Shown: one piece after another, positions 1 to 42,629 of the stretch
Layout: each line of letters opens with the position of its first letter
Position numbering within the stretch: the first letter of the stretch is position 1
Assembly (NCBI GenBank): GCA_015055605.1
Contig: SVHV01000002.1
Location: forward strand, 24,049 to 88,048
DNA from: Clostridiales bacterium
GTDB taxonomy: Bacteria; Bacillota; Clostridia; Christensenellales; UBA1242
Length of the DNA stretch: 64,000 bases
Direction of reading: 5' to 3'
Translations under genes and position numbers: made by a program
The notes under the pieces: generated by a model
Told to the model about the DNA's origin: nothing
Database searches by the model: none
Seen by the model: only the letters and a program-made list of their open reading frames with translations

Positions 1-3000
1 GCTAGTAACAAGGGATCTAATCTCAGATACAACATCATCATAAATTAAAGCAGAAGACTCGCCTTTATTAACAACTCTTTGTACTACGCCTAACTCATTA
101 CCTGTAATAGGTGAAACAATTACAAAATTAACTGTATATGTTTGAACAATGAAGTCTGCCCATATTGTAAGAATGCCATTTTCATCATAAGTGATTGTAT
201 CACCATTTGTGATATATTGTTTTTCTCCACCAACTAGGTAATACCAACCATTAAAGATGTATGAAGAATGACCATAATCAGAATATGTTGGCTCAGGACT
301 AGGCTCGATAAATGTTGTACCATATTTTACTGTACCATAAGTACCACCACCAGCACCTGCTGCACCGTCATACATGGTCATTTCTGAATTGTCATGTCTA
401 GTTACTTTGTACACAATTTTGATAGATCTTTCTTCATAAATTGCATAGAAAGTAAATGTCTTAGATGGCTCGATAAGGTCTGCTGGAATTATAGCGCCAG
501 CACCCTCTGCATCATAAAGTTTAGAACCTGATTTTGTACCCCAACCAGTTAGGATATAGCCCAACTTGTTGAATAATGCATTTGCTTTATATGGACTTAA
601 ATCAAAGTCTTCACCGTAATTTGCATTAACAATAAGTGTGCCATTAGTTTGTTTATCAACAAGTGTAATAGCGATTTGTAATGGTTGCCATACAGCATAT
701 AGTGTAACTACATTCTGTACACCACCCTCTACACTAGCTGTTAGATAACAATCTCTAAGAGTGCCATCTGAATTTAGAACTTTATATTTACCTGTGCCGG
801 TACTTTTAGCAGAACTAAAGTCAAATTGTAATGTAGTTCCTGTCTCGAACACATTATTCATATCAATAGTACCATCACTACCAGCAAGTGCCCAACCTAA
901 TAGGTTAAAGCCTGTTCTTGTTAAGTTTGAACCAGTAAGTGTTACTGACATTGTTAAGTTTGAACTAGATGTATTTGTACTATAGTAAGATGATGTAGGA
1001 ACAGTTCCTCTACCACCATTTGCATTAAATGATACAACATAATCGGTTGTCCAAACAGCATAATAACTAGCATTACCTGTAACTGGAACAGATGTATATC
1101 TAGAACCAGAAACATTTTTGTAAATAGTTTCGTTAGCAGTAATATCGCTAATCTTTGTATCTAAATCATATTTATTCTTTGTCCAACCCTCAAAGATATA
1201 TCCTGGTCTAGCAGGTCCTTGAGGAACAACAATGTTTGTGCCACCACCTACAGAATATGGTGTTTTATTTTCTGTACCATCATTATGGAAGAAGTCAACT
1301 GAGTAAGTATCTTTTACCCAATTTACATATAGAGATAGAGCTCTATCAGACATTTCATACTCATATCCTGCCGCATATTCTTTAGCAGAAGCATAGTTTT
1401 GTCTAGTTGTCCAACCACCAAATGAATTGTATTGTTTAGACCATTTAAGAGTATTAGTTACAACATCTTGTCCAGGAAGAGCAAGTGTTTCACCTGAAAT
1501 AGCCTCAATTCTAACCTTCTTAATACTATTCATAGCATCTAGAAGTGTAAGGTATGTAAGTTGTGACCATTGAGCATATAGTGTTACATCTTCGCTCACT
1601 GTATGAACATAAGTTGTGTCGATATATTTGAATGTTCCGATACCTGTCCATTCATTATCGTTAACTTGAGTTAGATTGATACCATAATTACCAGCATCTT
1701 GTGCCCATGCATTATACCAAACATTCTCCTCAACCTCGTCTGCATCAGCATAAGTTGTCCAACCTGTAAATCTGTAACCCTTCAAGCTATTCTTGAATGT
1801 TTCAGTTGTGATATATGGGTTAGATAAATCAAGTGTGTTGTAATAATTGTTTGTTTTTCTACTATTCTCGTCAAATACAGAAGTTGTATAGTATTTGCCG
1901 TAAATGTCGTCATATTTGTATACATTGATACTAGGAATATATCCACTAGAACCAGAAAGTCTCTTGTTGAAGTTCAACTTGTAAGAATCTCTAGTCCACT
2001 TAGAATATAAACGGAATTTGTAAACGCCATCTTCTGGGTCTACCTGTGAATAAACTGTAATCTCATTACCACTAGCATCTTGCATAGTAAGATATGGGAT
2101 ATCATTATTGTCAACTGCAACAGTCATGTCATATTCTGTAACAGGCATTGTTAAATCATAATCAAGATACCAGCCAGCGAATGTATATTCTTTGTAGCTA
2201 CCATCTTCGTCATTTAGAGTATCTACTGCATCAAGCACTGGAGTAATTCCACCGATTGCAGTTGAAATCTTATTTGTATATCTAACAAGTGGCTGAGTTC
2301 CAGAAGGTCTATTGTTTCTGATAATAAACTCTCCGTTAGCATCTTTAGCTGGAGTAACAGAAACATCAGTTACAGGATCAAGAACAGTTTTGTTATTGAT
2401 ATCTGTGTAACTGCTGAAGTATTCAATACCAGTGTATAGTTGAACAGAATATCTATTAGCCTGGAAGTATGCGTAAACATCTAGGTCACCGTCTGTACCT
2501 AGTCTCTGTCTACTACCTGGACTCCAAACAATAGCTGTAGACTCGTTAGCCTCAGTAATATTAACTGTAGACCAACCAACGAAAGTATGACCCTTGATAG
2601 CAGTAAACTCAGGCAATAATTCTCCACTTGAGTCTCTACCTGTAGGAAGGGTAAAGTAGTCGTTATAGTCTACACGAACAGACTCACAACCAGTAACAGA
2701 TGTACTGTTTATCCACTCTTGTCTTACTTCGTCCCAAACAAGAACATGGAATATGATGTTGTGTGTGTTTACATCATACTGAGCATATAGGTCTAGCTCA
2801 TCTTCAACAAGCTCCCTCTCCGGCTCAATAGAATGCAAACCATCATAGTCATAAGTCCACTCTCTAAAGGTGTAACCTATCTTTGTATAGCCCGCTATAT
2901 TACCCAGCGTACTATGTTTCTTAACCGAGTACTCCTTGAGTAATTGATCACCGTCATACATTGAGATATGTGTCTTTGGGTATGCATACACATAAAGGAT

Positions 3001-3096
3001 TGTTGCAAGCACTGACACCATCATAAGCACAATAATAACAACGGTTTTGATAAGTAAATTTTGTCTCTCTGCACTAACTACTTTTACTTCGTTCAT
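1..3096 (-). CDS. Large cell-surface repeat protein, 5' part only (the gene runs off the left edge). It has an N-terminal membrane anchor followed by many Listeria/Bacteroides-type (Flg_new-like) repeats.
   Basis: It is absent from the ORF track because no stop lies in the window. Hand translation of the minus strand from ATG 3096-3094 (GGGAGA 8 nt upstream) gives MNEVKVVSAERQNLLIKTVVIIVLMMVSVLATILYVYAYPK... In-frame triplets that I checked over 1-480 and 2500-3096 contain no stop. G-Y/H-x-F-x-G-W motifs recur (GYTFREW, GHTFVGW, YIFNGWYY). Confidence 0.7.
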   Translation of the reverse strand, partial: MNEVKVVSAERQNLLIKTVVIIVLMMVSVLATILYVYAYPKTHISMYDGDQLLKEYSVKKHSTLGNIAGYTKIGYTFREWTYDYDGLHSIEPERELVEDELDLYAQYDVNTHNIIFHVLVWDEVRQEWINSTSVTGCESVRVDYNDYFTLPTGRDSSGELLPEFTAIKGHTFVGWSTVNITEANESTAIVWSPGSRQRLGTDGDLDVYAYFQANRYSVQLYTGIEYFSSYTDINNKTVLDPVTDVSVTPAKDANGEFIIRNNRPSGTQPLVRYTNKISTAIGGITPVLDAVDTLNDEDGSYKEYTFAGWYLDYDLTMPVTEYDMTVAVDNNDIPYLTMQDASGNEITVYSQVDPEDGVYKFRLYSKWTRDSYKLNFNKRLSGSSGYIPSINVYKYDDIYGKYYTTSVFDENSRKTNNYYNTLDLSNPYITTETFKNSLKGYRFTGWTTYADADEVEENVWYNAWAQDAGNYGINLTQVNDNEWTGIGTFKYIDTTYVHTVSEDVTLYAQWSQLTYLTLLDAMNSIKKVRIEAISGETLALPGQDVVTNTLKWSKQYNSFGGWTTRQNYASAKEYAAGYEYEMSDRALSLYVNWVKDTYSVDFFHNDGTENKTPYSVGGGTNIVVPQGPARPGYIFEGWTKNKYDLDTKISDITANETIYKNVSGSRYTSVPVTGNASYYAVWTTDYVVSFNANGGRGTVPTSSYYSTNTSSSNLTMSVTLTGSNLTRTGFNLLGWALAGSDGTIDMNNVFETGTTLQFDFSSAKSTGTGKYKVLNSDGTLRDCYLTASVEGGVQNVVTLYAVWQPLQIAITLVDKQTNGTLIVNANYGEDFDLSPYKANALFNKLGYILTGWGTKSGSKLYDAEGAGAIIPADLIEPSKTFTFYAIYEERSIKIVYKVTRHDNSEMTMYDGAAGAGGGTYGTVKYGTTFIEPSPEPTYSDYGHSSYIFNGWYYLVGGEKQYITNGDTITYDENGILTIWADFIVQTYTVNFVIVSPITGNELGVVQRVVNKGESSALIYDDVVSEIRSLVTS

Positions 3097-3420
3097 TTCT
3101 TTTTTCTCCCATTTCTTCACTTGTGTTTTTTTATTTTAAAATTCCATATTTCTAAGGTCTTGTCCACGCCCTAATATTTTAAGTAAAAAGACAAATTCTC
3201 TTATAATATAAAATCTCTAGTAATATTATATATGCGAATGCGTAATTTCGTCAATCTTTTTGATATAAAATCGAAAAGTAAATTAAAAGGAAAATCAATG
3301 TCGAAATTTATCAAAAAACACAAGAAAATCGGGCACTTCTGCCATCACTATTTCTAGTTTATTCAAAAGAAATTTATTTATTTAAAAAGCAGATACTTTG
3401 ATATGTAAAATAAAAAATTT

Positions 3421-3444
3421 TAAGACATAACTTGTTATGTCTTA
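3421..3444. terminator. Perfect 10-bp hairpin between typA and the surface-protein gene
   Basis: TAAGACATAA-CTTG-TTATGTCTTA, flanked by A/T runs. Confidence 0.45.
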
Positions 3445-3473
3445 AAAACCTAGAAATATAGCAATTATATAAA

Positions 3474-3502
3474 GAAAAAGACATGTCAAAACAGACATGC
3501 CT
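3474..3502 (-). terminator. Rho-independent terminator of typA
   Basis: The minus strand reads GGCATGTC-TGTTTT-GACATGTC followed by TTTTTC, directly after the typA stop. Confidence 0.5.
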
Positions 3503-3529
3503 TATTTTAAGTAAAATCTCTAATTTTTA

Positions 3530-5356
3530 TCACTCAATATTGTTCTTTTTTCTGAAGTCCATTCTGCCTCTAGCAACATGGTCAAGAACAATTTTTCTTA
3601 GTCTCAAACTCTTAGGAGTAACCTCTAACAACTCGTCATCATCTAAAAACTCAAGACACTCCTCTAGAGTCATAATCTTATGAGGCTCTAGTCTAAGCGC
3701 ATCATCACTCGCTGCAGACCTCATATTTGTTAATTGTTTTTTCTTACAAACATTGACTACAATATCAACACCCTTAGGGTTAATACCTACAACCATACCA
3801 CCATAAACAGGTGTTCCTGTACCGATAAGCATTCTACCTCTTTCTTGAGAATTATATAAACCATATTGACAAGCCTCACCATTCTCATAAGCAATCAATG
3901 CACCAAAATTTCTTCTATCAATATTACCCTTAAATACATCATATTTTTCAAATACTGCAGACATAATTCCCTCGCCCTTAGTATCTGTTAAAAACTGTGA
4001 TTTATAGCCAAAAAGTCCCCTTGATGGGATAAGGAATTCAAGTCTAGACCTAGTACCATGAGTAGACATTGAAACTAGCTCTCCTTTTCTAGTTCCCAAC
4101 TCACTCATAACACTACCAACAGAGTCCTCTGGAACATCTGCAACAAATCTATCAATAGGCTCACATTTTACACCATCAATCTCTTTGTAAAGAACTTGTG
4201 GCATAGAAACCTGGAACTCATATCCGTCTCTTCTCATATTCTCAATAAGGATAGAGATATGCATCTCGCCCCTACCCAAAACTGTAAAACTATCTGCACT
4301 CTCTGTATCATATACTTTTAAACTTAAGTCCTTAACAGCCTCTTTCATAAGTCTATCTCTTAGATGTCTACTAGTACAGAACTTGCCCTCTTTACCTGCA
4401 AATGGACTATTATTTACAGAGAAAGTCATTTGAACTGATGGCTCACTAATTTTAACAAAAGGAATAGGCTCACAAGCACCCTTTGCACAAACAGTATCAC
4501 CTATAGTAACATCTGGACTACCAGCTAGACAAACAATATCTCCAGCAACAGCCTCTTCGATAGGAACTCTCTTTAGTCCCTCAAACGCAAAAATATTAAC
4601 TACCTTGAATGATTTAGCCTTAGACTCTCCATAATAGTTACAAACATCAACGCTATCGTTAGCTTTAATTACACCCCTCTCAACTTTGCCGATAGAAAGT
4701 TTACCTAAATAATCATTATGCTCACTAGAGCTAACTAACATCTGGAATGGAGCATTCTTATCAATATTTGGTGAAGGAATATAATTAACAATTGTTTCAA
4801 ACAATGGTTTCATATCTGTACCTAATGTATCTGGGTCAGTGCTTGCAATTCCCTGTCTACAAGAAGCAAAGATAAATGGAGACTCTAATTGTTCGTCACT
4901 AGCATTAAGCTCTAAGAACAACTCTAATACCTCATCAATAACCTCTTTTGGTCTAGCCTCAGCTTTATCAATCTTATTAACAACAACAATAACCTTATGA
5001 TTCAACTCTAATGCCTTTTGAAGAACGAATCTTGTTTGAGGCATTGGACCTTCAAAAGCATCTACTACTAAGATAACACCATCAACCATCTTTAGAACTC
5101 TCTCAACCTCACCACCGAAGTCTGCGTGTCCTGGAGTATCTACAACATTGATTTTTATATCATTGTATAGCACTGCTGTATTTTTACTAAGAATGGTAAT
5201 CCCTCTCTCTTTCTCAAGGTCGTTACTATCCATGACTCTATCTTCTACTACTTGATTATCTCTAAAAACACCACCAGACTTAAGTAACTCATTTACAAGG
5301 CTAGTTTTACCATGGTCTACATGGGCGATAATCGCAACATTTCTAATTCCTTTCAT
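3530..5356 (-). CDS. typA: Translational GTPase TypA/BipA
   Basis: [14 protein letters not shown] and [13 protein letters not shown]-motifs with EF-G-like architecture. I placed the start at MKGIRNV (ATG 5356) because AGGAGA lies upstream. Confidence 0.95.
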
Positions 5357-38033: not shown

Positions 38034-38579
38034 ATGGCAAAAAGAGAAGTTCAAGACTATCTTACAAAGGTAGAAAGAAATAGAGAAAGAGCAGACAGTG
38101 CAGAACTTGCTGCTAAACTATTCACAGGCATTACTGCCGGTGTAACAATGTTTGCCGGTCTTATGGGGGCTACAGGTGAAGTTTCTGCAGAAATAGGCTA
38201 CAATTTCTTAAAAGAAGATGTCGTTATCAATAGCAGTTTTGATGCAGAAGTTGTTGCTAAAAGAAATGCGCTAGTAGACCAACTAACAGCAGGAACTATT
38301 AGCATGGACGAATACAATGCAGGTATGGATAGTTTATATTCTAGAGACGCAGTAGTGGACTTTGCAAAAAGGTCTGGAGATAAAAGACTTGAAAATTTGG
38401 CTAGTTCCTATGAATCTACAAAAGATATGGGAGACACAGTAACAAAAGAAGGTATACCAACAATGCTTGCTTTCACAGGCGCTGGTGCTGCTGCGTGGAC
38501 TGTATCTGAAATAATCAAGAGAAAATACGATAGAAAAATAAGAGAGTACAAGGCTCAACAAGAAAAAGAGTGTATGTAA
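38034..38579 (+). CDS. Hypothetical protein with two hydrophobic Gly/Ala-rich segments
   Basis: 181-aa ORF with a GGAAGGGG RBS. No family recognised. Confidence 0.55.
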   Translation: MAKREVQDYLTKVERNRERADSAELAAKLFTGITAGVTMFAGLMGATGEVSAEIGYNFLKEDVVINSSFDAEVVAKRNALVDQLTAGTISMDEYNAGMDSLYSRDAVVDFAKRSGDKRLENLASSYESTKDMGDTVTKEGIPTMLAFTGAGAAAWTVSEIIKRKYDRKIREYKAQQEKECM

Positions 38580-38581
38580 AG

Positions 38582-38614
38582 AAAAACGACTAGTTGAATC
38601 TAGTCGTTTTTTAT
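38582..38614. terminator. Bidirectional terminator
   Basis: ACGACTAG-TTGAAT-CTAGTCGT, flanked by AAAA and TTTTTT. Confidence 0.6.
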
Positions 38615-38626
38615 TTTTCACACATA

Positions 38627-39178
38627 CTAATCAATAGAGATTTCTTCGTCTAATATAGAATATGTCGCAACATCATATCTAGCATGATAATTGTTTTTTC
38701 CAGCTTTTCTAAGAACTCCCTCAAATGTCATGCCAGCCCTCTTCATAACATTACCACTCTTAATATTCTCAACATCATGCTGAAGAACAATTCTCTTTGC
38801 AATCCCCTGTGACTTAATATATTTAAACATTCCCAGTAGTGCCTCTGTCATATAGCCATAGCCTTGAAATTTAGGATTAAGAACATATCCTATTTGGACC
38901 TCGCCCTCATTAGACTGCTTATATGAAACAATGCCGATAGAACCTATCACCCTACCCATATCTTTATGTTCAATACAGTAGTCATTAAGAACTTCGTTTT
39001 TTAGATAATCTTCTTTTACACAGGCAATTCTAGTTTTTGCTACCTCTAAAGAAGTGTATGTTGGGAACGATAAAAACTTAGTAACATCACTATCACTAGC
39101 ATATTCATATAAATCTATATAATCTTTATCTTCCCATTGACGAACAATTAGTCTATCTGTTTCATAAAGTATTGTCAT
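38627..39178 (-). CDS. GNAT-family N-acetyltransferase (RimJ/RimL-like)
   Basis: N-terminal YETDRLIVRQW and the acetyl-CoA motif QGYGYMTEAL, 183 aa. Confidence 0.8.
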   Translation of the reverse strand: MTILYETDRLIVRQWEDKDYIDLYEYASDSDVTKFLSFPTYTSLEVAKTRIACVKEDYLKNEVLNDYCIEHKDMGRVIGSIGIVSYKQSNEGEVQIGYVLNPKFQGYGYMTEALLGMFKYIKSQGIAKRIVLQHDVENIKSGNVMKRAGMTFEGVLRKAGKNNYHARYDVATYSILDEEISID

Positions 39179-39325
39179 AATATTACCTCTCGGTTGATTG
39201 TATCACACATTACAAACTTTACAAATTAATTGAGCATATAGAACTAAGATATTTTTTCGCAAAACAAAAGAAGGACACTTAATATAAGTGCCCTTCTTTA
39301 AATACTTTAACATTTATGTCAACTA

Positions 39326-40057
39326 TTATTTATCCATAGCAGACTCATTACTCATCATTTGTTCTTTTATCTTGTCTGCAATATTTATTGTTTGCATCTC
39401 ATCGCTGTCCAAAGCATAATGCAATAATGGGGTTCTCAACACTTTACTATCAAACATTGACCTCAAGAACTCTTGCTGTTGAGCCAAATCCATATCCATA
39501 AGAGATATAGAACCATTCTTGCTATCATACTCATAAATAGGCAAATCTACTTGCATCTGCTCTGCAATCATATACTTTGCAAGGAGTGCATAAAGTCTAT
39601 TTCTATCATTACTAGACGAAGAATAGAATAAACCGACAATGTCTTCTGGAGATATAGTGATATTTACTTCATTCATAACCCCAGAGGTGTGCTTTTCTCT
39701 AATATTAGATACTAACTCATCTAAATCTGCCAAACTCTCCCCAAAAGCATAAAAATCACCATTAGCCTTATTTCCACAACTACTAGAGTCTGTCTCAGAA
39801 ATATGCTCAATCTCTGCTGTATCTCCGTTAATCATAAAACCTATTGACTTATATGTAGGCACATCAACTCCTGGCACCAAAAGTGTCGAAGATGCTGATG
39901 TTAGCCCATCTGGACTTTGTGCTAGAGCAATTTCTCCTGCCCATGTAGAAAAATCATAAGCGAAATTAGAACCATCTACCCTAGTAATTCTTGGCCAATC
40001 CATAGCCCTCACTATCAATCTATTTTTCTCATATAATTCATCAATACTGTCTGCCAT
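39326..40057 (-). CDS. Hypothetical protein
   Basis: 243-aa ORF from ATG 40057 after GAAGGAG. No motif recognised. Confidence 0.55.
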   Translation of the reverse strand: MADSIDELYEKNRLIVRAMDWPRITRVDGSNFAYDFSTWAGEIALAQSPDGLTSASSTLLVPGVDVPTYKSIGFMINGDTAEIEHISETDSSSCGNKANGDFYAFGESLADLDELVSNIREKHTSGVMNEVNITISPEDIVGLFYSSSSNDRNRLYALLAKYMIAEQMQVDLPIYEYDSKNGSISLMDMDLAQQQEFLRSMFDSKVLRTPLLHYALDSDEMQTINIADKIKEQMMSNESAMDK

Positions 40058-40187
40058 AAACACTCCTTCTTTACCAGCAAATCACTTTGTTTTTTTATTC
40101 TTATTACCATAATAATAACATACAATAGCTAAGTTACAAATACTTCTACCAAAAAAACATACAAAAAATATGATTTATATAGCAAAA

Positions 40188-40211
40188 AGAACACCCTACT
40201 ATAGGTGTTCT
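40188..40211 (-). terminator. Orphan copy (A) of the AGAACACC...GGTGTTCT hairpin family
   Basis: The minus strand reads AGAACACC-TATAGTAG-GGTGTTCT followed by TTTTTG. No minus-strand gene ends just upstream of it. Confidence 0.45.
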
Positions 40212-40512
40212 CAACCACAAAAAAACAAGCCCGATAAAGGAAACTTGTTTTTTGGGTGCGGGCTGTTGTATCTCAGTTGAACCAATGTTTTATGGCTTGA
40301 ATTAGGGCTTTGTTATTTTAAATAAATTGAAAAATTTTGAATTTTTGTATTTTTATGACATATAAGATATTGATAAATCTGAAAGTCATGATACACTAAG
40401 CAAAACTTAATAAATTAAATAAATTCAAAGGTTGGAGAGAATTGTGTTTTCTTCAACCTTTTGTACTTCAAATACAAAAAATAAATGCATTTTTCAAAAG
40501 GGGGGTGGTATA

Positions 40513-40794
40513 ATGGGAGCAGGTGGAGTAACTAATCATGGAACTTATGATATTGAAGCTAGAAAACTAGAACCTATCTACAAACCAAATTCTAAAGTTA
40601 ATCGTTATGAAAATGGTGAAAAGAAACAAAGTAGATGGTATGGTCCAGACGGAAAAGCTGTAAGAAACAGAGATTATTCACATACAAGTAATGGAAAAGT
40701 ACCATTTCCCCATGACCATGCTTGGAATTGGAACAATCCAATGCCAAGGGGTAAAGAGCATTTAGAACCAGATTATGAAAATTTTAAAGACTAG
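40513..40794 (+). CDS. Small Gly/His/Trp/Asn-rich protein, a possible orphan toxin-like module
   Basis: 93 aa from ATG 40513 (GGGGGTGG RBS): ...NRYENGEKKQSRWYGPDGKAVRNRDYSHTSNGKVPFPHDHAWNW... No signal peptide. The next gene starts 8 nt downstream. Confidence 0.5.
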   Translation: MGAGGVTNHGTYDIEARKLEPIYKPNSKVNRYENGEKKQSRWYGPDGKAVRNRDYSHTSNGKVPFPHDHAWNWNNPMPRGKEHLEPDYENFKD

Positions 40795-40802
40795 GAGTAA
40801 TA

Positions 40803-41342
40803 ATGAAAGAACAAACTCAATTTAAATGGGAAAAACAAAATAAAAATATTTTAGGATTCAATTTGAAAGACTTTAAATATTTTAAGTATGACGACCCGAA
40901 TGAAAAAACAAATATTAAAAAATGTGATGTTTGTGATAACCCTTGCTTAATTGATGAGTTTGGAAATGGTAAATGCAATAATTGTTCTTGGGAACAAGGT
41001 GGTAGTTCTCTAGAATTAAAATATAAAGTTGGATACCCTAATTTAATACCATTATCTAAAGCAAAAAAATTGTATAAATTCAATAAACTTTTTAATCCCG
41101 ATTTTGAAGATTTTATTAATAATTTATTGTTCTATGGAGAAATGGAATTTGAATATAAAAATTTTAAGTATGTAGTAGACAGATATACTGACAAATTCGA
41201 GATACAAATCTGCAAAGTTAATGATTATGAAAATAGACAAAGTTATAAAAGTATTGATGAATTTATATCAAAAGCTAAAATTGATAATAAATTACTTAAA
41301 GATATTTGGGAAGACATAACAAATGTTAATTGGCAATCTTAA
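40803..41342 (+). CDS. CPCC-like zinc-ribbon protein, a possible cognate immunity or antidote partner
   Basis: CDVCDNPCLIDEFGNGKCNNCSWEQGG resembles the Cys-rich CPCC pattern (C-x2-C ... C-x2-C-x-WE). The AGGAG RBS lies inside the end of the upstream gene. Confidence 0.55.
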   Translation: MKEQTQFKWEKQNKNILGFNLKDFKYFKYDDPNEKTNIKKCDVCDNPCLIDEFGNGKCNNCSWEQGGSSLELKYKVGYPNLIPLSKAKKLYKFNKLFNPDFEDFINNLLFYGEMEFEYKNFKYVVDRYTDKFEIQICKVNDYENRQSYKSIDEFISKAKIDNKLLKDIWEDITNVNWQS

Positions 41343-41346
41343 ATAG

Positions 41347-41375
41347 AAAAAGCACTCAAATTTGAGTGCTTTTTC
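41347..41375 (+). terminator. Rho-independent terminator
   Basis: AGCACTCAAA/TTTGAGTGCT is a perfect palindrome, followed by TTTTCTGTTT. Confidence 0.6.
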
Positions 41376-41420
41376 TGTTTAACAATGTTAATATAAATTT
41401 CGGGTTCAACATTGTCCCTG

Positions 41421-41547
41421 TTGGCGCAGAGACCGGGATTCGCATTAACCGACAGCGTCAATTGTCGCAAACATTCTTGCGACTACAAAGGGGCACCCGG
41501 GTTCGTTTTTGTATAAACAAAAAAGAACACCCTACTGTGGGTGTTCT
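41421..41547. repeat. Direct repeat copy B: tRNA-Ser 3' end fragment, a 90-nt arm and a terminator hairpin
   Basis: TTGGCGCAGAGACCGGGATTCGCATTAAC... 41421-41531 matches 42328-42438 at 109 of 111 positions. The hairpin AGAACACCC-TACTGT-GGGTGTTCT lies at 41524-41547. Confidence 0.9.
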
Positions 41548-41552
41548 TAAAA

Positions 41553-42260
41553 TCACCTACGATTACTCATAATATCCCATGGGGTAATAATCCCCAAAAC
41601 CCTTTCTTGTGGTTTTCCGTTTTGGGTTATAAAAACCATAGCCAACCTTTTATTTTCTTCAAATTTTTGTTGAAACAATTCTCTAACATCTTCCAATAAA
41701 CAGTCTTTTTTTACAAACTCAAAACATTCAGATGCACGATTATTAATTTGTGAATATTTAGCAATTAGTTCATCTGAAAATGTTGTCTTATCTTTTTCAT
41801 ATATTAACTCATCTTCTATCAACGCACCAAAAAGAGTATTTTCACTAAAAACCCCTTTTAAAACACCATTTTCTAAAATAGGTACATGTGTATAAACTTT
41901 TTCTTTCATTTTTTTCATATACGGAAATATTAACTCATTGCCAGTCGCAGCACAAACATCTATTATTTTCACACAGGAATCATAAGCTTTAGGTGGATTA
42001 TCAATATAACTAATCACATTGTCCAACAAAATAATTACATCGTTGGATGGTTGAATAGGATATTCCTCACCTGTTTTTTTATGAGACAAAAAATTCCTTA
42101 TTTTACGAATAAATTCAAGTTCCTCTTTTAATTGTCTAAATTGAGGATATCTTGAAATTTGGCTCACAGCACCCTCTCTACCTATCTCGATATTGAATTT
42201 TTCATTTAATAATTTCTCTAATATATTATATTTATTAATTAAAATTTCTGCATTAGTCAT
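41553..42260 (-). CDS. HEPN-like (RNxxxH) N-terminal domain fused to a CBS pair
   Basis: 235 aa from ATG 42260 (AGGTG RBS): MTNAEILINKYNILEKLL...ELEFIRKIRNFLSHKK... (Rx4H), then two CBS-like modules (THVPILENGVLKGVFSE; RVLGIITPWDIM). The extra 39 codons in the ORF track run into the repeat and are unlikely to be real. Confidence 0.65.
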   Translation of the reverse strand: MTNAEILINKYNILEKLLNEKFNIEIGREGAVSQISRYPQFRQLKEELEFIRKIRNFLSHKKTGEEYPIQPSNDVIILLDNVISYIDNPPKAYDSCVKIIDVCAATGNELIFPYMKKMKEKVYTHVPILENGVLKGVFSENTLFGALIEDELIYEKDKTTFSDELIAKYSQINNRASECFEFVKKDCLLEDVRELFQQKFEENKRLAMVFITQNGKPQERVLGIITPWDIMSNRR

Positions 42261-42327
42261 AATTTCACACCTAAAATAATAAAACTGTTTTATATCATAA
42301 AAAAGCCCCATAAAGGGAACTTGTTTT

Positions 42328-42454
42328 TTGGCGCAGAGACCGGGATTCGCATTAAGCGACAGCGTCAATTGTCGCAAACATTCTTGCGACTACAAAGGGG
42401 CACTCGGGTTCGTTTTTGTATAAACAAAAAAGAACACCTAACCTTAGGTGTTCT
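42328..42454. repeat. Direct repeat copy C, immediately 3' of the tRNA
   Basis: Same unit as 41421-41547, with substitutions at 42356 (G versus C) and 42404 (T versus C). The hairpin AGAACACCT-AACCTT-AGGTGTTCT lies at 42431-42454. Confidence 0.9.
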
Positions 42455-42463
42455 AAATTCCGG

Positions 42464-42551
42464 TGGCGCAGAGACCGGGATTCGAACCCGGGGTACATCG
42501 CTGTACACAGCCGTTCCAAGACTGCACGATCGACCACTCTGACATCTCTGC
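42464..42551 (-). tRNA. tRNA-Ser (anticodon GGA), class II, with encoded CCA
   Basis: The minus strand reads GCAGAGATGTCAGAGTGGTCGATCGTGCAGTCTTGGAACGGCTGTGTACAGCGATGTACCCCGGGTTCGAATCCCGGTCTCTGCGCCA. The acceptor stem is 7 bp (GCAGAGA/TCTCTGC). The anticodon arm is CAGTC-TTGGAAC-GGCTG. The long variable arm is GTACA-GCGA-TGTAC. The T arm is CCGGG-TTCGAAT-CCCGG. The D-stem pairs poorly in my hand fold. Confidence 0.85.
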
Positions 42552-42629
42552 AATAATATGTTTGTGCTAGAGATATTCTTTAGCACAAACATAGTTTACA
42601 TTAAATCATTCTATCTTGCAATAGATTTT

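Follow-up and report, generated by a model that had tools for sequence, protein, structure and literature searches.

Small structured units in tandem behind a serine tRNA gene of an uncultured Clostridia bacterium

Tandem elements at tRNA genes and comparable systems

Transfer RNA (tRNA) genes are the commonest landing sites of bacterial islands, and the partial tRNA copies that lie behind them are usually read as dead scars. Here we analyze a stretch of 64,000 nucleotides (the whole of which we call the window) from the chromosome of an uncultured gut or rumen Clostridia bacterium, in which an array of such partial copies stands behind a serine tRNA gene, tRNA-Ser(GGA). The DNA between these apparent scars is a family of tiny, structured units, mostly without open reading frames (ORFs), that turns over between sister species, and one unit of which has gained a gene. 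At a probability of about 0.45, we read the array as a series of miniature, non-autonomous cassettes, which a recombinase encoded elsewhere would exchange site-specifically at the tRNA-Ser T-loop; a 907-bp module of the array would then be a gene-bearing cassette.

Integration into the T-stem of tRNA genes and the occurrence of tandem arrays at such sites are well documented, with 1836 islands in the Islander collection having an attP in the T-stem region (PMC4383910). Among the tycheposons, newcomers push older elements outward and leave partial tRNAs (bioRxiv 10.1101/2020.12.28.424599). The array described here resembles the tandem tRNA islands, as known from Islander and from the tycheposons of Prochlorococcus, in several respects: an intact tRNA gene is accompanied by direct fragments of its 3' end that run from the T-loop to the CCA, the element by the tRNA would be the newest with older ones decayed outward, and the cargo in the window looks defence-like. 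However, those islands are several kilobases long and carry an integrase, whereas the modules here measure 135–240 bp, mostly lack ORFs and are free of integrases. Ordinary island ends also lack two features common to the modules, namely a conserved arrangement of hairpins and the tRNA end copied in inverted orientation.

Cis-mobilisable elements (CIMEs) are recombinase-less elements flanked by attachment (att) sites (PMC5704250). As seen among the integrative and conjugative elements (ICEs) as well as the integrative and mobilisable elements (IMEs) of streptococci, they resemble our array in being att-flanked, without recombination genes and arranged in tandem at the 3' end of their target, and they rely on the integrase of another element. 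The 907-bp module and a 135-bp unit next to it are each bounded by a 21-nt copy of the tRNA end (hereafter the 21-mer) and recombinase-free, the arrangement by which the flanks of a CIME are recognized. CIMEs are kilobase-sized deletion derivatives of recognizable ICEs or IMEs; in contrast, the units here are about ten times smaller and form a diversified family, for which a parent element was not found. Tandem tRNA islands and CIMEs are the nearest known systems, with which the array has its geometry in common, but not its size, its regularity or its inverted repeats.

Site-bounded gene cassettes provide a second comparison. In integrons, the attC site is defined by its structure (imperfect inverted repeats), cassettes line up head to tail by a docking site, and the recombinase is encoded outside the cassette. 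By analogy, integron cassettes with their attC sites are also close to the array, as is the folded single-stranded attP of the CTX phage, since a module would consist of one gene or none and a site of ~60–150 nt. However, we found neither intI nor attI, Pc or a GTTRRRY core here; the docking site is a tRNA gene, the shared repeat is the 21-nt copy of that gene, and the conserved boxes are tRNA-derived. Integron cassettes usually contain one promoterless ORF, whereas only one of ~8 units here contains an ORF, with an apparent promoter of its own. The pdif modules of Acinetobacter plasmids are one- or two-gene modules bounded by Xer sites, their recombinase being encoded elsewhere. They may be likened to our units as small, site-bounded gene modules moved from outside; unlike pdif, the sites described here are tRNA-derived, direct, joined by an added inverted partner, and chromosomal at a single locus.

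Miniature inverted-repeat transposable element (MITE)-like sequences, such as REPIN/BIME and the non-autonomous derivatives of IS200/IS605, are similar to the units in being ORF-less, 100–200 nt long, hairpin-rich and bounded by inverted repeats. They differ from the units, which occur at one locus and have as their terminal repeat the end of the neighbouring tRNA. No target-site duplication was visible in the flanking sequences read.

Anatomy of the array and its units

The docking gene of the array, tRNA-Ser(GGA) (42464–42551, minus strand), is the single tRNA gene detected in the window by ARAGORN, which detected no tmRNA. It is intact, with an encoded CCA, matches the Rfam tRNA model at 39.4 bits and is 98.9–100% identical across sister species. 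Its context is chromosomal: the hydABC genes for an electron-bifurcating hydrogenase end 79 nt upstream, and the array is bordered by hydABC and the tRNA and, on its far side, by small orphan genes. Below, the order of units is read on the tRNA strand, i.e. the minus strand. The last 21 nt of the gene (TGGCGCAGAGACCGGGATTCG on the plus strand, CGAATCCCGGTCTCTGCGCCA on the sense strand) were found in exactly three places in the window by an exact-repeat search. Core copy 0 is the end of the tRNA itself and starts in the T-loop (42464–42484); core copy 1 lies 135 bp downstream (42329–42349); core copy 2 lies another 907 bp away, at the distal end of the gene-bearing module (41422–41442). Both displaced copies match at 21 of 21 positions and are in direct orientation, so that all three are on the tRNA strand, with the identity beginning inside the T-loop between TT and CGAAT. 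A match to the 21-mer was not obtained in any of 100 shuffled sequences, even when three mismatches were allowed. These three copies, reported in a preliminary description made from the sequence of the window, are thereby confirmed.

Core copies 1 and 2 belong to a direct repeat of 130 nt with 94% identity (41421–41550 and 42328–42457). Its inner 111 nt (41421–41531 and 42328–42438) agree at 109 positions, and the two differences fall where they had been placed previously. The repeat represents two copies, M1 and M2, of a unit that we call beta. M1 (42350–42463, minus strand), defined by sequence reading, hairpin parse and terminator scan, lies next to the tRNA and has a body of 114 nt that contains no ORF. 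It opens with CCGGAATT (42456–42463), an inverted remnant of the tRNA 3' end, followed by hairpin 1 (42431–42454), which scores as a terminator with its stem AGAACACCT/AGGTGTTCT and a T-run, and hairpin 2 (TTTTTGT/ACAAAAA; 42413–42430). Next come CGAACCCGAG (42403–42412), which repeats the T-arm's 5' half in inverted orientation, TGCCCCTTTGTA, hairpin 3 (GTCGCAA/TTGCGAC; 42371–42390), AATTGACGCTGTCGCTTAATG and finally the 21-mer. M2 (41443–41548, minus strand) was delineated in the same way from sequence reading, repeats and hairpin parse. It contains the terminator-scoring hairpin 1 (41523–41548), one compensatory stem change apart from that of M1, hairpin 2 (41506–41523), the inverted half of the T-arm (CCCGGGTTCG, 41496–41505) and hairpin 3 (GTCGCAA-N6-TTGCGAC, 41464–41483). 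At its 5' side, the end of the gene carried by the module has taken the place of the inverted remnant or overlaps it. The related terminator hairpins, the 7-bp hairpin and the inverted piece of the T-arm had all been noted before; the last of these is conserved in three unit versions. Directly after core copy 1, the terminator scan also identified a hairpin of another type, which we call A-type (42303–42322, minus strand). Its homologue in two relatives (L013 and L025) is the terminator placed after the tRNA itself, and a second, degenerate copy lies at 40227–40255 of the window.

The identical three-copy layout, with spacings of 135 and 907 bp, is present in eight contigs from seven JGI and ENA metagenome samples, which were produced by different assemblers. 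Because these eight contigs read through the repeats identically, the layout is not an assembly artefact. Two copies of the unit occur in the window, both at the tRNA. When 185,579 species genomes were scanned with the arm pattern CCTTTGTAGTC-N(8-30)-GACAATTGACG, the one match was the orthologous tRNA-Ser locus of L013, which contradicts a generic intergenic repeat. Both of these alternatives, an assembly artefact and a generic dispersed repeat, had been raised in the preliminary description and are effectively refuted, despite the tendency of five contigs (L006, L016, L017, L026 and L028) to break in or by the repeats. Among JGI metagenomes, in a collection that lacks the contigs carrying the locus (e.g. 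Ga0257091_10008024), the arm pattern matched once (L014, 1643–1686), inside an apparent long ORF on an unrelated contig without a tRNA; judging from this sequence context, we take the match to be a chance one.

The five contigs that break by the repeats do so at the tRNA 3' end or the first unit, or within one of the two. Two of them, L026 (end 6864) and L028 (end 2427), break off no more than 2 nt from the tRNA 3' end; they are from the L025 species, where only the 21-nt core repeats, and their breaks may reflect strain heterogeneity at the junction.

L013 is a Clostridia metagenome-assembled genome whose hydA region has 85% DNA identity to the window. Other relatives were reached via HydA homologues, and the unit types in their arrays were named alpha to epsilon. 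The window array consists of beta, then terminator, gene and a second beta. In L013, an A-type terminator and alpha are followed by a decayed 21-mer, of which 13 nt are kept, and the flank TTATGGTTGACTT. L029/L030 contain beta, a terminator, gamma (200 nt), another terminator, delta, and then the same decayed 21-mer and flank as L013, whereas L025/L027 contain an A-type terminator, delta' and epsilon. These three sister lineages therefore carry one to three different ORF-less units of 110–220 nt behind the same tRNA. L013 and L029, which are 92% identical in DNA sequence, have both flanks in common and differ in all units between them. Throughout, the differences between the arrays of sister species begin and end at the 21-mer. 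The possibility that all relatives might carry an identical arrangement, considered previously as a sign of a simple old duplication, is not borne out by this comparison of sister strains and species.

Variation is also seen at closer range. The contig L007 is 99.2% identical to the window and has a divergent version of alpha at the site of M1, preceded by 10 nt of the tRNA end and unrelated AT-rich DNA; its left flank differs from that of the window. On a second contig from the same sample, the tRNA is followed by beta of the window type. The most distant relative, L031, has no tRNA-Ser after hydA, and the contig L032 is too short for a comparison of arrays.

The units are a structured family and not debris. 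Their bodies are 110–200 nt long (up to ~220 nt with the hairpin after the preceding 21-mer), and the five types share an architecture. Alpha (in two versions), beta and epsilon are collinear, with three perfectly paired hairpins in the same order. An explicit hairpin parse indicates that hairpins 1 and 2 have a stem sequence of their own in each version, without relation to the others, and that hairpin 3 has two stem versions. The diverged versions in L007, L013 and L025 retain the length and the three-hairpin architecture of beta. Delta and delta', in an alignment read by eye, differ in loops and linkers, never in stems. A terminator-like hairpin follows the 21-mer, mostly after 5–10 nt and after 36 nt in L025. 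The exception is the outermost copy in the window (41422–41442), where the next hairpin is a palindrome at 41321–41400.

This regularity bears on the reading of the repeats as attachment scars, which was favored in the preliminary description. A start in the T-loop and an array that varies unit by unit agree with that reading; the regularity of the units is not explained by the classical decay of islands. If the array consisted of neutral attL/attR scars, left by successive large islands or prophages that carried integrases and were almost wholly deleted, one would expect the classical geometry that is indeed seen, i.e. an intact tRNA and displaced direct 3' fragments with identity from the T-loop onward. 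The greater decay of the outer copies also fits, and so does the occurrence of homologues of the cargo gene in defence islands, by tRNAs and beside type I restriction genes. However, random deletions would not yield five unit types with a shared architecture, three of them (alpha, beta and epsilon) collinear over their full length, nor changes that fall in the loops of orthologous units and spare the stems, and integrase fragments or other island debris are absent between the 21-mers. We consider such an origin unlikely.

Most units open with the tRNA 3' end copied imperfectly and in inverted orientation. The copies in gamma (GCAGAAGACCGG), alpha of L013 (AGAC-GGGATTC) and epsilon (GC-GAAAC-GGGATTC) each have a background p of ~0.001, that in alpha of L007 (CCGGAATTC) has a p of 0.013, and those in delta (GAGAACGG) and beta (the remnant CCGGAATT of M1) have a p of 0.05. 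No significant match of this kind was found in M2 or in a relic of the array near 40.2 kb. In addition, the alpha and beta units contain GAACCC(G)GGGTAC, which corresponds to the inverted 5' half of the T-arm and the end of the variable arm. In three alpha/beta versions, this inverted half outscores all, or all but 0.1%, of background windows. From the inverted copy and the T-arm half taken together, it follows that the 5' part of a unit is the inverted 3' third of the tRNA, into which hairpins 1 and 2 are interposed at the T-loop. The center of the T-loop, between TTC and GAA, is the site of three kinds of breakpoint: the left edge of each 21-mer, the end of the inverted copy (after GGGATTC) and the start of the inverted T-arm half (GAACCCGGGGTAC). 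These inverted starts, the terminator after nearly every 21-mer and the mostly gene-free nature of the units go beyond the preliminary description. A unit is not a degenerate tRNA-Ser pseudogene, a candidate that was rejected as alignment similarity is limited to the 21-mer and the inverted pieces.

The inverted pieces could be accommodated by an integron-like system that docks at a tRNA gene, which we regard as rather improbable. Each cassette would end in a folded site of 100–200 nt, and an outside recombinase would insert, excise and reshuffle cassettes at the palindromic TTCGAA in either orientation. Such freedom of orientation would account for inverted pieces of the tRNA. The site's terminal inverted repeat would rebuild the acceptor/T-arm end of tRNA-Ser as a hairpin duplex, and each insertion would supply a fresh tRNA 3' end and a terminator.

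Proposed exchange at the T-loop and its alternatives

The body of M1 and that of beta in L029 are identical at 111 of 114 positions (97.4%), with the same size and all loops identical, and beta occupies the slot proximal to the tRNA in both species. For the same pair of genomes, identity is 84.2% in hydA, 63.7% at third codon positions and 75.3% in the spacer between hydA and the tRNA. Beta is therefore either much younger than the split of the species, having been exchanged, or constrained at nearly every base. The presence of the 135-bp unit at the same size in L029 also indicates that it is discrete, contrary to its earlier description as an element reduced to about 130 nt. All internal 21-mers are intact (21/21) across the window, L025/L027 and L029/L030, and unit bodies are unrelated between types. 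The outermost 21-mer is degenerate in L013 and L029, as is the relic near 40.2 kb in the window. If each junction is made by recombination with the live tRNA gene, it is easily understood that perfect 21-mers adjoin bodies that defy alignment. Drift and gene conversion across a 21-nt tract would hardly yield this pattern, and conversion across so short a tract is inefficient.

The same data can be set against a simpler scenario, in which tandem duplication and unequal crossing-over at the tRNA 3' end gave rise to non-mobile local repeats, kept because their hairpin-rich DNA is useful on the spot, for instance as an insulator or as stacked terminators where the tRNA is strongly transcribed, and the gene merely lies between paralogous copies. 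We find this rather unlikely. It agrees with the restriction of the units to one locus and to this genus, with the failure to find a recombinase nearby, with the terminator scores of beta hairpin 1 and the A-type hairpins, and with the conserved stems of delta and delta'; the 109 of 111 positions common to M1 and M2 fit a recent local duplication. However, under this scenario internal 21-mers would have to stay perfect while the bodies diverged past alignment, and beta would have to remain 97.4% identical, loops included, in species whose neutral sites are ~64% identical. Sister species with the same flanks hold different units, and the inverted tRNA-end copy and inverted T-arm half are left unexplained.

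Exchange of cassettes at the T-loop, the reading that we prefer, builds on the observed anatomy, the differing units between the same flanks, the breakpoints at the T-loop center and the near-identity of beta across diverged species. The DNA downstream of tRNA-Ser(GGA) would be a recombination hot spot that accumulates and exchanges cassettes. An integrated cassette would start with the 21-nt tRNA 3' end, which rebuilds the tRNA when adjacent to it, followed by a terminator hairpin, optional cargo and a structured segment of 100–190 nt, usually opening with the inverted tRNA-end copy and containing two to four perfect hairpins; the next 21-mer would close the cassette. A terminator after the 21-mer is expected here because a cassette that restores a working tRNA gene needs one. 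The exchange would be site-specific rather than homologous, the cassettes would pass through a free circular or single-stranded form, and the inverted repeat and the hairpins would serve as recognition features of the recombinase. This recombinase would act in trans, from an integrative element or as a host enzyme encoded elsewhere. Applied to the window, the model would place an empty 135-bp beta cassette (M1) by the tRNA, then the 907-bp cassette with a promoter and a HEPN-like/CBS gene and, further out, older, decayed junctions. By analogy with accretion in tycheposons and CIMEs, the tRNA-proximal beta would be the newest arrival.

Several observations weigh against this proposal. An excised or empty form was not seen, and all eight spanning assemblies of the same species have one layout. 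In agreement with the preliminary description, which had reported a window free of integrase and excisionase, a Pfam scan of 40 window ORFs revealed no domain of an integrase, excisionase or transposase. Recombinase and transposase domains are likewise missing from the Pfam tables precomputed for the matching contigs, which cover ~31.5–52.3 kb, and a recombinase gene is also absent from the related loci examined (the five array types and the syntenic contigs L015–L017 and L032). IMG/VR contains no match to the arm pattern and none to the 21-mer, and BLAST searches of phages and plasmids with the window unit and the arrays of L029 and L025 returned nothing meaningful. An autonomous relative with these sequences was thus not found in the genome, IMG/VR, phage and plasmid searches. 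An inverted core-binding site is missing immediately to the left of each 21-mer, where the DNA is AT-rich, and the units therefore do not resemble a standard attP core. Finally, short direct repeats can also drive homologous deletion and unequal crossing-over, which may account for some of the variation without a dedicated enzyme.

The folding of the units raises the question of whether they act as RNA. Every unit folds with its 5' inverted copy pairing with its 21-mer, leaving GCCA free, and M2 has folding z-scores of -3.1 as RNA and -3.7 as DNA. The units could thus be genes for small tRNA-like RNAs, in which the inverted copy and the 21-mer form a helix like that of acceptor and T-stem with a GCCA tail (compare the tRNA-like domain of tmRNA), and tRNA-processing enzymes would cut them out of read-through transcripts. 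The closing helix with unpaired GCCA, the z-scores, the low p values of the inverted copies in gamma, alpha and epsilon, the location of all units on the tRNA strand and the persistence of the hairpin architecture through completely changed stems are in line with this idea. However, searches against Rfam matched only the tRNA, both for the whole window at the gathering threshold and for the window locus, L029 and L025 at permissive cutoffs (E ≤ 1 to 10). Promoter-like sites were not found before the units, and a terminator-like hairpin stands ahead of most unit bodies or, in beta, inside the body ahead of the arm. The sense and antisense strands fold equally well, and stem pairs are almost purely Watson-Crick, with a single G-T among ~130 pairs checked, an unusual trait if the product were a structured RNA. 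Beta lacks the acceptor part of the closing helix, and in delta and epsilon this part is degenerate. RNAalifold, run on four versions of the arm, gave only weak covariation, the underlying MAFFT alignment having misplaced a hairpin. A role at the level of DNA rather than RNA is therefore favored, on account of the missing Rfam match and promoters, the equal folding of both strands, the near absence of G-T pairs and the degraded acceptor helix; we regard small RNA genes as quite unlikely.

If a recombinase does act in trans on these cassettes, they would constitute a minimal, non-autonomous layer of tRNA-targeted mobile DNA. Such arrays would be overlooked by island finders that require an integrase, as in filters of the Islander type, and they would offer single genes a route into the chromosome, for example to the HEPN-like/CBS gene, whose family occurs elsewhere beside restriction systems. 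Should the units be immobile, they would represent an unrecognized structured DNA or RNA element tied to one tRNA.

Cargo gene and surrounding DNA

The gene in the 907-bp module (41553–42260, minus strand) encodes a protein of 235 residues and was characterized from its ORF, homology, Pfam and AlphaFold. It is conserved, in a small protein family of 41 clusters. The AlphaFold model is confident, with a predicted local distance difference test (pLDDT) score of 90.5, and in it the C-terminal 145 residues form a CBS pair. In the helical N-terminal domain, Arg54, Asn55 and His59 (R54-N55-x3-H59) are invariant across 32 homologues. This pattern recalls the RNxxxH of HEPN nucleases, and the domain may accordingly be described as HEPN-like from its sequence; its best Pfam match, ‘HEPN pEK499 p136’, is below threshold (E = 0.014). 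The protein could not be named from sequence searches of PADLOC, NCBIfam and PDB. The gene likely has its own extended -10 promoter, a candidate for which (TGATATAAA, 42289–42298, minus strand) was recognized by eye ahead of a ribosome-binding site, AGGTG; a consensus promoter scan did not call this candidate.

Homologues with 50–61% identity are encoded immediately after the type I restriction gene hsdR in two contigs (L012, 2384–6696; L023, 2016–5705). Another homologue (L008, 5781–9548) lies between tRNA-Arg(CCT) and a pair formed by a tyrosine recombinase gene and hsdS, and one in L011 is convergent with tRNA-Thr. The contexts with restriction genes suggest a place for the HEPN-like/CBS family as an accessory in loci for restriction or defence. 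The idea that the arm travels with the cargo gene was rejected: eight other contexts of homologues contain neither the arm nor a tRNA-end repeat. The arm therefore belongs to the tRNA-Ser locus and not to the cargo gene.

Beyond the last core copy, an inverted-repeat search identified a near-palindrome of 40 + 40 nt (41321–41400; 80% complementary) that is a two-way terminator. It closes the convergent genes of 40432–41342 and sits between the last 21-mer and a convergent gene for 179 residues. The first 25 nt beyond the outermost core were compared with the inverted 3' third of the tRNA; their score of 9.0 is at the 99th percentile only, a weak match. An older, decayed junction of the same kind as those of the array was located by the repeat and terminator scans at 40184–40281 (minus strand). 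This relic, to which the start of the L007 contig is homologous, comprises, in order, TTCAACTGAGATACAACAG, a degenerate tRNA end (CCCGCACCCA), the copy of the A-type hairpin, TTGAGAAC and a copy of hairpin 1. L007 1–165 and window 40262–40431 have a 22-nt block (ATTGrTTCAACTGAGATACAA) in common, together with weak similarity, and the block abuts a truncated tRNA end both in L007 and at the relic. It looks, on these alignments, as if a second type of arm with a crossover in the acceptor stem exists.

The region 38580–41420 of the window is species-specific and encodes orphan proteins of 179, 120 and 245 residues and a GNAT acetyltransferase. It is bounded by the array and by a conserved gene for 181 residues (38034–38579), whose orthologue in L013 is at 2948–3556. 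L013, L025 and L029 hold quite different genes in its place. The region looks like an older, decayed part of the same hot spot.

On the other side, a 17-bp hairpin (TATGTTTGTGCTAGAGA/TCTTTAGCACAAACATA; window 42557–42593) ends 5 nt before the 5' end of the tRNA, downstream of a promoter-like TTGCAA-17-TAgAAT that was called by the scan in L025 and L029. The hairpin is present in four species (window, L013, L025 and L029), in which the outer stem ATGTTTGTG/CACAAACAT is kept and the inner stem and loop differ. The hairpin may act as the hydA terminator or as a structured leader of the pre-tRNA. At the 3' end of the tRNA, the trailer after the CCA (42456–42463), which is the inverted remnant that opens M1, is complementary with one mismatch to AATCCCGG in the 3' half of the T-arm (42465–42480). 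By this pairing, a read-through pre-tRNA could fold into an alternative hairpin that competes with the T-stem.

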